Source: Octopus vulgaris (lineage: Eukaryota). Taken from it: DNA of 64,000 bases. The first letter of the stretch is position 1. Each line of letters starts with the position of its first letter. Location of the stretch: assembly GCA_951406725.2 (NCBI GenBank), contig OX597828.1, positions 34,596,001 through 34,660,000 on the forward strand. The letters are read 5' to 3'. Positions 636 through 44,006 of the stretch are shown in pieces. The translations under genes were made by a program, and so were the position numbers. A model generated the notes under the pieces. The model was not told the origin of the DNA and ran no database searches. It was given only the letters and a program-made list of their open reading frames with translations.

Positions 636-860
636 AGGTCTGGACAGGCGTATGTATGGGGTTGGTGTATGTATTAGTATGTATTAGTATGTATTAGTAC
701 GTATTAGTATGTATAAGTGTGTGTGTGTGTGTATGAGAGAGTATAAGTGCGTATGAGGGGTCTGGACGTGTGTATGTATAGGGTTGGTGTATGTATTAGT
801 ATGTATTAGTATGTATTAGTACGTATTAGTATGTATTAGTTGGTGTATGTATTAGTATGG
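636..860. repeat. (GTATGTATTA)n 10-mer repeats within a ~120-bp tandem duplication in the PLE 3' UTR
   Basis: GGTCTGGAC...GGGGTTGGTGTATGTATTAGTATGTATTAG occurs at about 636-715 and about 758-840. Confidence 0.8.
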
Positions 861-3800
861 CACATCATATATGATGTGATGTGTAAAGTCGTGTGGTGTA
901 GTGAGGAGAAGAGGGGGAGGGGGAGAAGAGGGGGAGAGAAGGGGAGGGGAAGGAGAGGGGGAAGAGGAGAGGAGGGGGGAGAGAAAGGAGGGGGAGGAAG
1001 GAGGAAAGGGGGGAGGAAGGAGGAAAGAGGGGGAGGGGGAGAGAGAAGCGGAGTGAGGGAACAGAGGGAAGAGGGAAGGAGGGAGGGAGAAAGAGGGAAG
1101 AAGGGAAGGGGAGTAGGGGTGAAAGGATGAAGGACTGAAGAAGTAGGGGTCGGGGGGAAGGATAGGTGAGGAGGGGGAGAGGGGGTTAGATGAGGAGGGG
1201 GAGAGTTGAGACCAAATGGCGTATAAGAGCGAAGAGAGAAGATTAATTCCTGTTCACGGCGCAAACGGGAATCCGGATGGCCTCTGTGTAAGGACAAACC
1301 GAACACAGATAGGTGTTGCAAGGAGTGATCGGTGGAGCGGAAATGGCGTGAGACCGGTGTGTCGTTCGCAAGGTGGATGTCACGAAGGTGTTCCGCGAAC
1401 CGGTCAGCCAAGCGGCGTCCCGTTTGTCCGATGTACAAGGAATTGCAGAGAGAGCAAGAGACGCAATAGATAATATTGCTGGAGGTGCAGGTGAAGGAGT
1501 GGATGATGGGATAGGGTCGATGGTGGGTGCTAGTGAGGCGGGTGGTGTTGGAGAGGTAAGGGCAAGTGCGGCAACGTGGGCGGGAGCAGGGGAACGAGCC
1601 GGGTTGGGAGGTAGGGTCAGGGAAGGAGCTATGGACCAAAAGGTCTCGAAGGTTGTGGGCTCGTTTGAAAGAGGGGAGGGGTCGGTTAGGGAAGAGGTGT
1701 GAAGTGGACGGGTCGGACTGGAGATGACGGAAAGCTCGAAGAATGGTGCGTTGGAGACGTAGGGTCGTGGGGTGGTAAGTGAGGGGAAAAGGGAGGCGGG
1801 AGACTACAGGGCGGGTTCGGGGAGAGAGAGCAGATACACGGTCCACGGACCGTGCTCTGGCAAGGGTGGTGTGGATAGTGGTGAGGGGGTATCCACGTAG
1901 GGTGAAGTGGTGAGCCATACGTTGAGACTGAGTCTCAAAGTCATGGTCGTCACTACAGAGCCTACGTAGACGGAGGAATTGGGAATAGGGGATGGAAAGC
2001 TTGGTGTGTTCTGGGTGGGAGGAAGAGAAGTTGAGGTATGAGTGTGAGTCTGTGTGTTTGTAGTGAATGGAGGTGGTAAGAGTGGAGTGAAGAATGCTAA
2101 CCGAAATGTCGAGGAAGGAGACAGAGGTGTTGGAGATAGTGGAAGTGAAGTGGAGGGCTGGTTGGAAAGATTGGACGAAAGAGAGGAAGGAATCTAGATG
2201 TTCGCGGGAGAGTGAGGGGGCACCGATAATGTCGTCAATGTAACGACCATATAGTTCAGGAGTGGGACCAGTGAAATTAGAGAATATTTGGGCCTCAACA
2301 TAGCCAACGAACAGGTTCGCATAGTTGGGGCCCATTCGCGTTCCCATGGCCACTCCCGAGATCTGATGGTAGAACTCGCCCGCGAACGAGAAGCAGTTCA
2401 GAGTAAGGACAAGTTCGGCCAGACGAATGAGTGTGGAGGTGTCAGGTACAGGGTTAGAGCGGAGGTCAAGAAAGTGTCGAAGGGCCTGCAGTCCTTCGTG
2501 GTGAGGGATAACAGTATAGAGGCTTTGGATGTCCATAGTAAAAAGGATTTTGGAGGAGCCGGGAGGAAAGGAGAAAGAGTTGAAAAGCCGGAGAGCATGG
2601 TTGGTATCGTGGATGTGGGAGGGAAGAGATGCCACTAGGGGGACAAGGACACGGTCGAGGTATTTAGAGATGAGCTCCGTGGGGCAGTTACAGGCGGAGA
2701 CGATGGGGCGGCCAGGGTTGTTGGGTTTGTGGATTTTGGGGAGGAAGTAAATGGTGGGGGTACGTGGGGTTCGCACAATTAGGTTGGATGCGGTGCGGGG
2801 GAGACGGGAGGACGAGATGAGGTCGCGGACAGTAGAGGATACCGTCTGTTGGTAGCTACGTGTGGGGTTAGAGGGCAGAGGGGAATAGAAGGAGGTGTCA
2901 TTGAGTTGGCGGAAAGCCTCGGCCCTATAGAGGTCCGCGCGCCACACCACTACAGCTCCACCCTTGTCAGCCGGTTTGATGATAATGTCAGCGCGCCGTT
3001 GGAGGGAACGAAGAGCCAAGAGCTCAGCCGGGGAGATGTTGAGGCGGCGTTGGCGAAGTTGGCGAAGTTGAACCGCTCCAATGCACGCTGACAAGCGCCC
3101 GCGAAAAGATCCACTGCTAGGATCTGGCCAGGGGCAGGCGTCCACGGGGATGGTCGGCGGCCCAGGCCAGTGAAGCAATACTCTTCGTTGGGTGTGGGTG
3201 GCGAGTCGTGGTAATGCGCACTCAACCGGACACGGCGCACAAAGCTGTGGACATCAACTCGCGTCTGGAATTCCTTACAGGATGGAGTGAGGGGGATGAA
3301 ACGCAGACCCCTACCAAGGACGGAGCGTTCAGCCGCAGAGAGGGGAAGATCGGGGGGAATGGTAACAACAGACGGAAGTGGAGAAGGGGTGGGTGGAATA
3401 GAAGTAGGAGGGGTGGTAGGTCTCGTGGAGGTCTGAGGGGGAGGGATTGGGGAGGTGTGTGGGGGTGGTTGGGGGGGCAGTAGGGTTAGGTGTAGGTGGA
3501 TGGAGCCTATCGGGAGGGGAGAAGGGGTTGTAGGGAGGGGCAGTGGGGTTAGGTGTGGGTGGATGGAGCCTATCGGGAGGGGAGAAGGGTGGTGGAGGAG
3601 TTGGGGTAGTGGCGTCGGGTAGGGTGGAATGGAAGAGTGATTGGAGTTTACGAAGTTTGGTATCAGAAAGAAATTGATGGAAGAGTTGATTCAAATGGAT
3701 AATGAAGCGTAGCGTGTTTGGCGCATAGAGAGGCGGCAGAGAGGAGAAGAAGGTGGAGAAAGCAGGAGGAAGAAGGCGGTTGATGGCATGTAGTTTAGAG

Positions 3801-6680: not shown

Positions 6681-6985
6681 ATATTAATAGTTATCGCCGA
6701 GCTAACATGACAGTCCAGAAAAATAGGACGAATGCTGCCGTCAGCAGCGACGCCTGCTGGATTCGGCTACTCCACATTGATAAGAGGCAAACACCTCGAA
6801 ACTAGTCTGTGGGTGCCAGACCAGCAAGGGGAAGCTGCTGACTTCTCCAGTTTGAAGGTTATAATGAACACAGGATTGTGTATCACATAGCTAGCTAGAG
6901 GCGATGGCCTCTTAGAGCTAATCAACGGTAGCATTCGTCCTATTTATCTGGACTGCCAAGTTAGCTTGGCGATAACTGTTGATAT
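6681..6985 (+). mobile_element. Fold-back mini-element with 61-nt inverted arms enclosing a hammerhead
   Basis: Arms 6681-6741 and 6925-6985 match at 54 of 61 positions; a hammerhead motif lies inside. Confidence 0.75.
6740..6842 (+). ncRNA. Type I hammerhead ribozyme, U3-A8 variant, with extended stem I
   Basis: CCACA-TTGATAA-GAGG caaaca CCTC-GAAA-C TA GTC-TGTGG (6772-6812). Stem I continues through GGC/GCC, TGCTGG/CCAGCA and GTCAGCAGC/GCTGCTGAC. Confidence 0.82.
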
Positions 6986-9845: not shown

Positions 9846-10093
9846 ATCAAAATAAGCAACAATATCAGATGTAATGCAGTATGATCGTGTCATGCAACTC
9901 CATTTAATTGAACAATGCAATCATTACATCAAAGTGTCCATCTGTTCTAATTTAATTAAATTCTATGTCTTTGTGTAGCTGGGGATTGCTCTACATTTTG
10001 AATTGATGTAATGATTGCATTTTTCAATTAGATGGAGTTGCATGAAACGATCGTACTGCATTACCTCTGGATATCCTTGTTGCTTATTTTGAT
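9846..10093 (+). mobile_element. Fold-back mini-element (~88-nt arms) with a hammerhead-like motif at 9973-10061
   Basis: Arms 9846-9932 and 10003-10093 are near-identical and inverted. The motif reads GTGTAG-CTGGGGA-[long stem II]-GAAA-C gatc GTA-CTGCAT. Confidence 0.65.

Positions 10094-12941: not shown

Positions 12942-12945
<4 letters not shown>
12550..12945 (+). repeat. Dispersed (TA)n-flanked pLTR-like repeat (second copy at about 50648-51000)
   Basis: Shared GGAAGGA...TTCGAAACG(T/C)AGAGTAGAT(G/A)AAAC and TGTCCTGTAC(T/C)CATATATGC segments. Confidence 0.6.
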
Positions 12946-12992
<47 letters not shown>

Positions 12993-13013
12993 AGATGTGG
13001 AACACGAGTTGTG

Positions 13014-13285
13014 ATATATAAAAAAGGAAATGAAGAAAATGCTGACAAAATATTTTAAGTAATTTAAGTAATTTAATTAGGTGAGAGTTCTTTTTACCGG
13101 TTGCGCATTTGTTATGCTTATCAAAAAGAGAGATAGAGTTCCTTTCTGATAGATTTTTTCCTCTTAGAACTCTATCTCTCTTTTTGATAAGCATAACAAA
13201 TGCGCAACCGGTAAAAAGAACTTTCACCTAATTAAATTACTTAAATTATTTTGTCAGCATTTTCTTCATTTCCTTTTATATATAT
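13014..13285. repeat. Near-perfect ~120-bp-arm inverted repeat carrying a hammerhead-like motif in each arm
   Basis: Arms 13014-13141 and 13167-13285 with a 25-nt spacer. TCTTT-TTGATAA-GCAT aacaa ATGC-GCAA-C cg GTA-AAAAGA occurs at 13179-13219 (+) and 13089-13129 (-). Confidence 0.85.
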
Positions 13286-14020
13286 ATATATATATATATA
13301 CGACGCTCTTCTTTCAAATTCCGTCTACCAAATCCACTCACATGGCTTTCGTCACCCCGAGGCTATAGAGAACGGCGCTTGTCCAAGATGAAAGCAGTGG
13401 CACTGAACTCAGAACCATGTGGTCGGTAAGCAAGCTACTTACCACACAGCTACACCCTAGTATATATAGTCAATAAAGTGCTTTATGTCTACTTCAAATT
13501 TCTGTAATTCTCGTCTATCACGCACACACACGAATTCACACGCACGAACACACACACACATTCATATATATATACATATATATTACATACGCCGTGCAAA
13601 ATGCTTAGCGGTGTTTTGTCTGTTTTTTCCGTTCTGAGTTCAAATTCCACCGGGTGTCGAATTTGCCTTTCATCCTTTCGGGGTCAATAGAATAAACACT
13701 AGTTGAACACTGGAATCACGGTAACCACTTCCTCTATCCCCCGAAAACTGTTGGCCCTGTGCCCAAATTTGAAACCATAATGTATGTATGTATGTATGTA
13801 TGTATGTATGTATGTATGTATGTATGTATGTATGTATGTATGTATGTATGTGTGTATGTATATATATGTGCATGTGTGTGTAAGTGTGTGTGTGTTCGTT
13901 TAATTATCTATTTAAAAAAAAGAAAGGAAAGAAAAATGGAGAGCTGACTTCTATCGAATTCTGATCGATGTCATTTATTTTTAATTATTTCCTAAACATT
14001 TAATGTTTTCATAGTATTGA

Positions 14021-29292: not shown

Positions 29293-29382
29293 CACACACA
29301 CACACACTCACACACACACACTCACACGCACACACACACTCACACGCGCACACACACACATATATATATACATAAATATATA

Positions 29383-29628
29383 TTGGGTTGGTGCATAATT
29401 ATTGCGGGTTTTTTTCAACAAATCTTATTCAACAAAACAATAACATTTCACAAAAACATCTTTAAATAATTATTCCGGAGCATATTCACCATCTACTTCA
29501 ATTACTGCTTCACATCTGCTTGGCAGACGGCCATACCGTCATTTGAAGATGTTTTTGTTAAATATTGTTATTCTTTTTGTTGAATAAAATTTGTTGAAAA
29601 AAGCCGCAATAATTATGCACCAACTCAA
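29383..29628. mobile_element. Mariner-derived MITE
   Basis: TA target duplications and long TIRs TTGGGTTGGTGCATAATTATTGCGG. The internal minus strand reads RLPSRCEAVIEVDGEY, a mariner C-terminus. Confidence 0.88.
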
Positions 29629-29684
29629 TATATAATTAAGTTTACACACACACACACACACACATCGATATATATATATACTCT

Positions 29685-41656: not shown

Positions 41657-44006
41657 CAAAGAGAAATTAATATTTTAACAGTCATAAAAAAAGATGGTTT
41701 AAAACTCATCTCTGTAGAACAAATATAATTAACACATTTACAAAAGCCAGTTATAATATGTGATTCTGTAGTATTGGAGTGAAGCGTAGTAACTAGTTTA
41801 TTGACAGTACTACTAGAAAACGTCACTCTTAGCATCATTAATTCTATGTTAATTAAATTACAAGTGAATTCAGACACCCAGCAACAGAACATACCAAGAA
41901 AAGATGGTGGTTATTGCGTGTCAGAGGAATAGTTTCAGACGACAGTTACCTACGCTGCCCGTTGTCTTTCCAGTACATCAAGAGCAGCTGCTATGTAACA
42001 TATTGATTATAATGGTACATAGTTAGAAAATCGATGACTAGTGCACCAGCGATAGTCTCTGAAAGAACTAGATATTGAACTTCTAAAATCTAAGCTTAAC
42101 GCAAAAACAATAAGATGGTGACAAATAACATGGCGATACCGCACAACTATAAACTCCTACCTTAGCCTGTTAGCTGCTATGTTGCCAACAAACCGCACAT
42201 TTTGCCTGGAATATTGGCAAGATTCAAAGTGGCGAGCGAAAAAAATCGTTAACCCGCCAGAGAAAATGCTTAGCGGTATTTTCTCCGTTTTTGCTTCTGA
42301 GTTCAAATTCCACCGTGGTCGGCTCTGCCTTTCATTCTTACGGAGCCGATAAAATAAGTACCAGTTGGACACTGGGATCGATATCTCCCAAAATTCCTGG
42401 CCTTCTGCAAAATGAAACCAGACTCCGAAAGGATGAAAGGCAAAGTCGACTTCGGCGGAATTTGAACTCAGGACGTAAAGACAGACGAAATACTGCTAAC
42501 ATTTTGCCCGGAGTGTTAACGATTCTGCCAGCTCACCGCCTTAATTTGGAACCAATATTGACAAGATGCAGAAGCGGTGATCTGGATGGATCGTTACGGC
42601 ACCGGACAAACCGATTAACGGCAATTTTGCCTACTTTATGTTTTGCGTTCAAATACCGACGAGATAAATTTTTATTTTACATCCTTTCCGGGTCGATAAA
42701 ATAAGTACAAGGTAAGCACTGGAGTCGACGTAATCGAATTCCTGTTGTATATATATATATATATATATACATACGTGTGTGTCTTTTTTATGTTTGCGTT
42801 TGTTCGTCACTACCATTTAACAACCGGTGTTGGTCTGCTTAGATCCCGGTAAATTAGCGGTTTCGGCATCAAGAGGCTGATGAAATAAATTACAGACTTA
42901 AAAATAAGTACTGAAGTCGATTTGTTAGACCAAACATGCTTCATCATGGTCGCAATCCAGTGACTGAAACGATCAGTATCTAAATGGAGCTAAGAAGCAA
43001 CAACGAAGAACAACAATAACAGAAATAACTAGAAACAGCTTTTACAAAGTTTCGCTGAAATTGCCCTTCATTGAAATATAAATATTACTCGGGTTTGCAT
43101 GATGGAATCCAACCTTACGAAGCAGAAAAATAGGACAAGTGTATTCGCCATTAAGAAAGAATCTATCACAACTGAACTCATTCAGAACGATATCCAAATC
43201 TCCGACGATATATCTTTATTCTTTTATCTTGTATTTGCTTCAGACATTGGTTTACGGCCATCATGGAGCACTGTCTTGAAGGGTTTTAGCCGAGCAAATC
43301 GACTGCTATTAATTTTATCAGAGTCTTTTGCCGAACTCCTAGGTAACGGGGATGTAAACAAACCAACACCTGTTGTTAATCGGTGATGGGGAATAAGCAC
43401 AAAAAACACGCACGCACACACACACACGCGCGCGCGCGCGCGCACGCACATATACGGCAGACTTCCATGTAGTTTCCGTCTCCCAAACTCAGTTATAAGG
43501 CATTGGTCGGTCGGAGCTATAATACGAGACTGTTGCCCAAAGTGCCACTCAGTGGAACTGAACTCGAAACCACGTCGTTTCTTAAAGCGAGTTTCATAAC
43601 CGTTCACCCATTCCTGCGACGAATGTCACCAGTATAGTGTATTTTCTTCGACAAAACTCCACATTGCATAAAGCTGTCAGACACTAACCGCTCGGAATAC
43701 GTTAGGCTTTCCTATCTAAATATTTTATATATGTTACTTATATGAACATCAATCTAACTTGGAAAATTCCAATGCGAAAATACTGTTGAGATTTTGCATA
43801 GAGAAACACGATAAGTTAGCACACAGTGAGCTAAACAAGAGTTACCATGGCAAGCATTACAATAGTATGTTAATATTCGATACTGTAATATCGGAGACCT
43901 CTAATATTGTGCAGATGCGACTGAGAAATTACGCAGTTAATTAGATTTATGGGAGATATGGAATGTGTACATTATCAATTTAATTTATAATTGGTAAGAC
44001 TTATGT

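Follow-up and report, generated by a model that had tools for sequence, protein, structure and literature searches.

Inverted leader copies of a Penelope-like element carrying an A13C hammerhead in the genome of Octopus vulgaris

The closest described counterparts of the locus analysed here are the inverted pLTR insertions of EN+ Penelope-like elements (PLEs). As portrayed in the relevant passages of Arkhipova et al. 2013 (PMC3846280) and Craig et al. 2021 (PMC8557442), these share with the octopus family a head-to-head inverted terminal repeat, a one-ended tail of 30–40 nt, TATA and Inr elements in the pLTR, (TA)n targets and the CX2-5CxxC linker of Neptune and Nematis elements. What differs is that the tail rule is counted here (43/43 loci) and that most octopus arms end at the inferred start site; neither such a count nor arm ends at a start site was found in the PLE passages of these two papers. 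Hammerheads residing in PLE pLTRs have likewise been described (PMC4209133), and in the sections concerned they share with the octopus motif the location, the U3-A8 covariant core, G10.1-C11.1, a palindromic stem III for dimer folding, the occurrence as opposite-strand pairs 100–700 bp apart and, as in D. virilis, a helix I of 2 bp. Since U3-A8 minimal hammerheads in opposite-strand pairs are already on record there, the both-polarity arrangement is not new; the octopus family departs from that description in that A13C is fixed throughout an active family.

For the Poseidon PLE of Anolis, the pertinent parts of Frangieh et al. 2024 (PMC11167929) describe a protein that in vitro cuts and extends both strands, with two internal RT start sites defining the ends of the tail; these features, the AT-rich target and the predicted dimer all have parallels here. 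Poseidon belongs to a different clade, and AUAU microhomology to the target at both start sites distinguishes the octopus element. As both strands used both start sites in vitro, that work does not by itself explain a strict rule of one tailed and one untailed arm. Its hammerhead is protein-assisted and was unneeded for insertion, and in the same parts of the paper no RNA-seq reads were found to end at the cut, whereas genomic copies starting at the cut occur in octopus. Finally, the U6/LINE-1 chimeras generated by RtcB (passages of Moldovan et al. 2019, PMC6789731) share the joining of a U6 or U6atac 3' end to the 5' end of a retroelement RNA prior to retrotransposition. According to these passages the 3' ends of U6 and U6atac bear a cyclic phosphate, which RtcB can link to a 5'-OH, both groups being needed. 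In contrast to LINE-1, it is the ribozyme of the element itself that would supply the 5'-OH here, always at the same base, and an unrelated hammerhead contributes two of the partners as its cut ends.

The palindrome at 13014..13285 lies in a 64,000-nt stretch of O. vulgaris DNA (contig OX597828.1, positions 34,596,001 to 34,660,000), which was analysed as a whole and is referred to as the window. Alignment within the window defines inverted-repeat arms at 13014-13141 and 13167-13285 with a spacer of 25 nt. Between them are one internal substitution (G/A, region of 13091), a single mismatch where they border (TA)n, and a 9-bp indel, which is a repeated unit whose extra copy has its own T>A change. 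A palindrome of ~270 bp with near-identical arms and (TA)n on both flanks, as described in an earlier note on this DNA, is thus borne out, the tracts at 12945..12984 and 13278..13300 forming the left and right parts of the target site. Both arms carry the motif UUGAUAA-GCAU-aacaa-AUGC-GCAA-CCGG-UA, with U3 at 13184 (+) and 13124 (-) and C13 at 13205 (+) and 13103 (-). While the note's arms stand, blastn comparison with a full-length parent (L108; G000:C8:86304800-86310600) redraws the outer limit and the centre. The left arm (12985..13166, - strand), a copy of the element's leader, is 35 nt longer, reaching 12985, and its 5' end at TATA+33 lies ~4 nt or less from the inferred transcription start. 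It alone has the 35-nt PLE 'tail' (12985..13019, -), which continues into ORF1 in full-length copies, and the 25-nt 'spacer' (13142..13166, -) is additional 5' leader of this arm and no designed loop. The right arm (13167..13277, +) is untailed and has its 5' end at TATA+58. The left-arm hammerhead motif occupies 13095..13124 (-), with A17 at 13095 and the predicted cut at 13095/13094; the right-arm motif (13184..13213, +), of type I minimal hammerhead design, comprises a U3-A8 core, stem II GCAU/AUGC, A13C at 13205, a palindromic ACCGGU stem III and a GUA triplet, with the predicted cut at 13213/13214. In blastn, the window arms match the L108 pLTRs at 87–92%.

The palindrome contains no promoter. 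Read-through RNA of either strand is predicted to fold into a single hairpin of -174 to -176 kcal/mol, and the corresponding DNA hairpin is calculated at -122 kcal/mol. As such RNA folds as one long hairpin, the ribozyme motif is buried, and the hairpin should keep the hammerhead from folding. Hence, the expectation that transcripts of both strands carry a ribozyme and its antisense holds for what is encoded, not for what would be free to fold. Action of Dicer or ADAR on the hairpin RNA would be plausible, as would extrusion of a cruciform by the DNA. Among the matches listed for the locus in Rfam (150 of 189) there is no hammerhead model; miRNA-type hairpin models alone appear, below cut-off. 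Considered as a locus, 13014..13285 is ordinary transposon debris, namely a promoterless PLE insertion scar, and its two polarities are a by-product of PLE insertion, an architecture known from the relevant parts of PMC3846280, PMC8557442 and PMC4209133. Three further palindromes of 250–290 bp occur in the window (9846-10093, 29367-29644 and 42244-42524) and are older and more diverged.

A search of the genome (2.8 Gb, 227 contigs) for the exact 35-nt core with any base at position 13 yielded 1522 copies, against 0 for the reversed control. Position 13 is C in 1506 of them, T in 14, G in 2 and A in none, which establishes GCAA as the consensus of exact cores and leaves GAAA without a representative. 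The GCAA core is also found in intact parents, in both terminal repeats, and one GAAA copy with the same 3' strand exists in the genome. The proposal that U3-A8 and A13C are older than the duplication holds, both being family consensus and the arms coming from one template. Sampling in genome order gave 26 distinct loci, 11 with a head-to-head pair and 15 with a single arm. Contigs from four public runs, of which three are presumably DNA and one is of unrecorded kind, contain the family; pieces of the pLTR occur in contigs from four runs presumed to be RNA, and these contigs give no start, strand or level. In view of the copy number relative to the control, the proportion of head-to-head loci and the presence in public contigs, the palindromes are neither chance nor an assembly artefact.

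The leader unit is positioned behind RT plus GIY-YIG coding sequence in L031 and L081, and full-length partial tandems have the order TATA box, hammerhead, tail, ORF1 and an RT-endonuclease frame of 784 codons. ORF2 of L108 matches PF00078 and PF01541, both above the Pfam cut-offs, with RT followed by a C-terminal GIY-YIG endonuclease as in PLEs. A CxxxxCxxC linker, CNRPNCGIC, stands ahead of VYVLTCSGCNEHYIGQT with H residues downstream, so that the CX2-5CxxC linker and CCHH motif, which passages of PMC8557442 give for PLEs, are both present; a linker of the CxxxxCxxC type is ascribed there to Neptune and Nematis elements. Partial tandems (pLTRs), an inverted 5' copy and a 30–40-nt tail on one end complete the PLE features. 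Judged by the linker motif and the (TA)n targets, the parent would be classed as a Neptune-type EN+ PLE. Of 150 endonuclease matches scored, 52 are 100% identical to the query, several with the full 784-codon frame, which makes the family very young. The RT-EN frame overlaps ORF1 in the -1 frame, and the heptamer U-UUU-UUA lies at the overlap in 33/33 fetched rows (L108 2012-2040); no stimulatory hairpin is predicted behind this slippery site (-0.4 kcal/mol) and ORF1 has no match in Pfam. Frameshifted ORF1 is known in some PLE types, according to passages of PMC3846280 and PMC8557442. The window itself contains, at ~839-3690 (-), a long PLE-type RT plus GIY-YIG frame of another family, ~30% identical to this parent. 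Assignment to non-LTR retrozymes, which consist of head-to-tail hammerhead-bounded units, was rejected, since the arms form head-to-head pairs and represent an autonomous element's leader.

How the palindromes arise can be read from their tails and ends. One tailed and one untailed arm were found in 43/43 simple head-to-head loci (P ~1e-13 if arms were independent), 17 of which had been fetched for their opposite-strand pairs with the tail status not yet known. Of four complex loci outside the 43, L059 and L080 obey the tail rule and L066 and L079 do not: the inner pair of L066 is tailed/tailed and L079 is tail-to-tail. A further exception is the chimeric L237, in which both arms are untailed. 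The tailed and untailed ends are 35 nt apart, and each falls at a T-run followed by ATAT, able to pair with the (TA)n target. Three observations indicate that the arms of a locus derive from one template: the subfamily type is the same in 42/43 pairs, as compared to 39% expected, the remaining pair being mixed; 8/14 rare GTAA cores represent both arms of 4 loci; and arm lengths within a pair correlate (rho 0.70, n=45). Wherever one arm extends past TATA+20 in the upstream direction, the other does too (7/7 loci), and U6 is fused in both arms at L225, L239 and L352. Once three arms had been removed, being a spurious hit or local duplicates, 63/118 arm 5' ends fell at TATA+28..+33, as compared to 3 in the six preceding bases and 6 in the six that follow. 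One subfamily lacks 41 nt behind its TATA box, and its arms again peak at +28 to +31, in different sequence (20/32 arms). For these counts both the TATA box and the start site were placed from sequence, the ends of alignments are accurate to ±~3 nt, and an intact core was required, which limits how short an arm can be. Because the majority of arms stop at the inferred start, they represent complete leaders rather than random truncations from the 5' side.

The explanation we favour is that one sense RNA is copied twice. That is, Pol II would start ~30 nt behind the TATA box, and a protein dimer would prime from both nicked strands of the (TA)n target, using two sites separated by 35 nt, at each of which a U-run followed by AUAU would pair with the target. 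Both cDNAs would extend to the 5' end of the RNA, and host repair would join them there. The outcome, one tailed and one untailed arm without a promoter, is what is observed. Alternatively, the second arm could be a fold-back, that is a self-primed copy of the first cDNA, or stem from self-priming of an antisense transcript as in rotifer Penelopes, a possibility proposed in passages of PMC3846280. Such a course would account for shared rare variants, matched arm lengths and the single tail, and 24/45 pairs indeed end ≤3 nt apart. However, fold-back from a tailed cDNA needs the tailed arm to be the longer one, and the tailed arm reaches further in 11/45 pairs and the untailed in 10/45; as the two are longer about equally often, simple fold-back of this kind is disfavoured. 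The arms of L081, 3.5 kb and 0.5 kb in length, speak against it as well, and an anchoring of start sites on the sense strand does not fit an antisense template. We therefore regard fold-back and antisense self-priming as unlikely, and a sense RNA primed twice agrees better with our data than does the antisense scheme of 2013 as set out in those passages. Two other notions found no support: extra bases at the palindrome centre derived from a cap, the junction bases mostly fitting, by eye, templated starts at +29 to +31; and gene conversion as the source of arm identity. At L010 (1650-1790), the palindrome centre includes ~130 bp copied from a neighbouring LINE ~1 kb away.

Turning to the ribozyme motif, the consensus core (UUGAUAA, G12, A14, A15.1, U16.1, A17) is present in nearly all of 160 aligned arms, a sample that was partly core-selected. 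In place of the A13 of type I minimal hammerheads, the family has C as its consensus; G10.1-C11.1 and the palindromic stem III are in place, and stem II is 4 bp long with a predicted pairing P of 0.96–0.99. Stem I has 0–3 contiguous pairs, 3 at this locus and 2 in most subfamilies, rather than 4–6 bp, the predicted pairing probability at 2.1-1.1 is 0.00, and its 5' strand varies between subfamilies without compensation. The earlier reading of the motif is therefore correct for the core (UUGAUAA/GCAA/ACCGGU), not for stem I, where UCUUU cannot pair with AAAAGA in register. A side lineage (L313-L341) with a shorter A-run behind the cut has a perfect 4-bp stem I and keeps A13C (21/24 rows). Sister families with GAAA, UUGAUAA, ACCGGT or ACTAGT and varied stem II gave 738 matches against 161 in the control, 100 of the 738 being listed, and in most GAAA sister motifs examined stem I has 5–6 pairs. 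Because these sisters combine UUGAUAA and ACCGGT/ACTAGT with GAAA and a varied stem II, the octopus motif is a true hammerhead homologue. One canonical U3-A8 hammerhead of a sister PLE family lies in the window at 6765-6815 (+), between arms at 6681-6741 and 6925-6985, with GAAA, an ACTAGT stem III and a 6-bp stem I.

No second A13C family emerged: GCAA with other stems gave 16 matches versus 10 in the control, and a further GCAA search 71 versus 34, mostly mutants of the 1522-copy family, with a singleton (L141) resembling a GAAA family. Coding constraint on C13 was considered and discarded, the change being synonymous in a 4-codon upstream frame (CGC/CGA), so that protein is no explanation. 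Passages of PMC3088659 place A13 in the strict hammerhead consensus, and A13C is absent from the natural variants listed in the text of that paper; changes of A13 slow hammerheads 10–100-fold (a passage of PMC4075628, citing Nelson and Uhlenbeck). A hammerhead with A13C was not found in the literature text covered here, and an earlier description is possible. Lunse et al. 2017 reportedly concerns PLE hammerhead variants. A candidate retained GT..AG intron at 13211..13257 (+), read from the sequence, would use the GU of the cleavage triplet as donor. It recurs in L157, L163, L168 and others, and one subfamily carries ~200 bp more directly behind the donor. Contigs of four runs guessed to be RNA contain no spliced joint, and an upstream AUG would be in phase with ORF1 in 1/12 scored rows, some of which overlap the same copy. 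Splicing of this intron would destroy the ribozyme.

If the RNA is cut after GUA, insertions that start with the 3' product are to be expected. Forty matches open with this product as predicted and do not have the usual two bases in front of it; a script sorted them into 16 mutants with the motif still upstream, 2 members of the insert-bearing subfamily, 15 other junctions and 7 chimeras. The latter represent 5 independent events, comprise all three subfamily types and are joined at the exact predicted cut. Their partners are U6 (2 events), U6atac (1) and the 5' product of a retrozyme hammerhead (2). The 3' end of U6 is joined at two loci, each on both arms (Rfam scores of 52.5 and 47.3 bits for L196, cut-off 44), and U6atac scores 80.6 bits in Rfam (cut-off 33). 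At the remaining two loci, of which one has undergone local duplication, the partner is a retrozyme-type 5' product that stops at its own GUC; judged by eye, 96 of the first 100 rows listed show this partner continuing into its native strand. Inspection by eye of the 15 other junctions revealed ~9 that start at the cut, in the palindrome centre or after unrelated sequence, one possible hammerhead join, four ambiguous A-run junctions and one degenerate case. Copies starting at the cut make up ~1% of arms, at most ~20 of ~1800.

For comparison, positions one base to either side of the cut were inspected, which supersedes an earlier control position with a stricter pattern (3 matches, 2 true truncations). 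One base upstream, none of 35 matches, all of which were examined, is joined to a foreign RNA; one base downstream, no such join occurs in 37 examined of 60, the other 23 showing the GT of the normal motif. Most of these 60 belong to the L313-L341 lineage. Nor is U6 joined at the inferred start site, though half of all arms begin there. In a canonical GAAA PLE hammerhead (L352), a full U6 is joined at that element's own cut on both arms. The genome holds 180 matches to the U6 3' end, and most of the 100 listed are fused to 5' ends of tRNA-type SINEs through short variable linkers. Given the many other RNAs to which U6 is fused, a join of this type identifies an RNA 5' end and is no proof of a 5'-OH; as many of these partners are SINE 5' ends, template jumps are a possible source of chimeras. 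A hammerhead cut leaves a 5'-OH. We propose that a small share of RNAs would be cut after GUA, and that the 5'-OH product would sometimes be joined, probably through RtcB, to RNAs with a terminal 2',3'-cyclic phosphate and then copied into the genome. On the genomic record at the canonical base, it is likely that the A13C hammerhead cleaves in vivo. Two neighbouring cases may be mentioned. At L353 (G000:C6:133037150-133037850), U6 is joined on both arms of a head-to-head palindrome to a different AT-rich element, which may be one more product of PLE cleavage. At L164/L165 (G000:C1:116410987-116411054), both arms of a palindrome start from the predicted cut and enclose a foreign centre of 16 nt, which we take to resemble a tRNA anticodon arm.

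The same insertion scar could, however, carry the A13C motif as a dead relic, with the 5' ends at the cut coming from elsewhere: trans cleavage by a GAAA hammerhead via the ACCGGU palindrome, a protein nuclease, or stalling of RT at stem III followed by a template jump. The place of A13 in the strict consensus (PMC3088659, in the passages cited above) fits this idea, as do the near absence of stem I with its uncompensated 5' strand, and a subfamily with a ~200-bp insert two bases behind the cut that spread well nonetheless (~half of 30 loci). The genome has several GAAA families that carry ACCGGT, and insertion in vitro did not need cleavage, according to the relevant part of PMC11167929. Against it stands that 5/5 chimeric events sit at the exact canonical position and none one base to either side, and that the same U6 fusion on both arms favours a ligated RNA over two separate jumps. 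Moreover, the sister 5' strands GATAT, GGAAGT, CCACA and TACCA offer AAAAG 0–1 stem I pairs. On balance, we hold a dead relic to be doubtful.

Ambisense viroid-like circular RNAs have a ribozyme motif readable on both strands, and the octopus locus had been likened to them. It might accordingly be a selected element with ribozymes in both polarities, or one that feeds Dicer or ADAR by design, as each strand holds the motif and its antisense and the hairpin is very stable. The octopus locus differs in being genomic, linear and promoterless, with a centre that varies and two identical motifs set in a perfect hairpin. Indeed, the centre differs at nearly every locus, 15/26 loci in genome order are single arms, and no palindrome has spread as a unit among the loci examined, local duplications apart. 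Arms diverging by 1.8 per 100 within a locus versus 2.3 between loci are not kept identical, and the hairpin buries the core. With its unequal arms and lost promoter, the locus loses its likeness to a viroid-like rod, and a selected ambisense element is very improbable. An assembly artefact, to which the lack of a bridging contig for this junction in four public runs and the difficulty of assembling inverted repeats in (TA)n might point, can practically be dismissed, as the arms differ in sequence and tail and 43 loci show the same asymmetric rule.

Taken together, we consider it probable that the palindrome consists of two leader copies of a young Neptune-type PLE, one RNA having been copied twice from both nicked (TA)n strands, and that the A13C hammerhead cleaves slowly in vivo, not inside the hairpin. 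We also lean, with more reserve, towards the full sequence of events. In it, a hammerhead without A13 and nearly without stem I would self-cleave in living cells, and prior to retrotransposition its 5'-OH product would be ligated to U6, to U6atac and even to the cut ends of unrelated hammerheads; every palindrome would be the trace of a Penelope dimer that copied a single RNA as far as the cap, beginning at two start sites, with one for each target strand. Judged from its sequences, the family is one with a fixed-A13C, near-stemless hammerhead and an apparent genomic record of cleavage, and it offers unusually clean counts on the formation of inverted pLTRs. In the parts of the PLE literature considered here, two questions are open: whether weak PLE hammerheads cut in vivo, and how one-tailed inverted pLTRs originate. 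This family makes both testable, with its intact parents, a cut site marked by chimeras and sharp predictions on tails and start sites. If the A13C core works, hammerhead search descriptors, which according to passages of PMC3088659 now reject any change at position 13, would widen.
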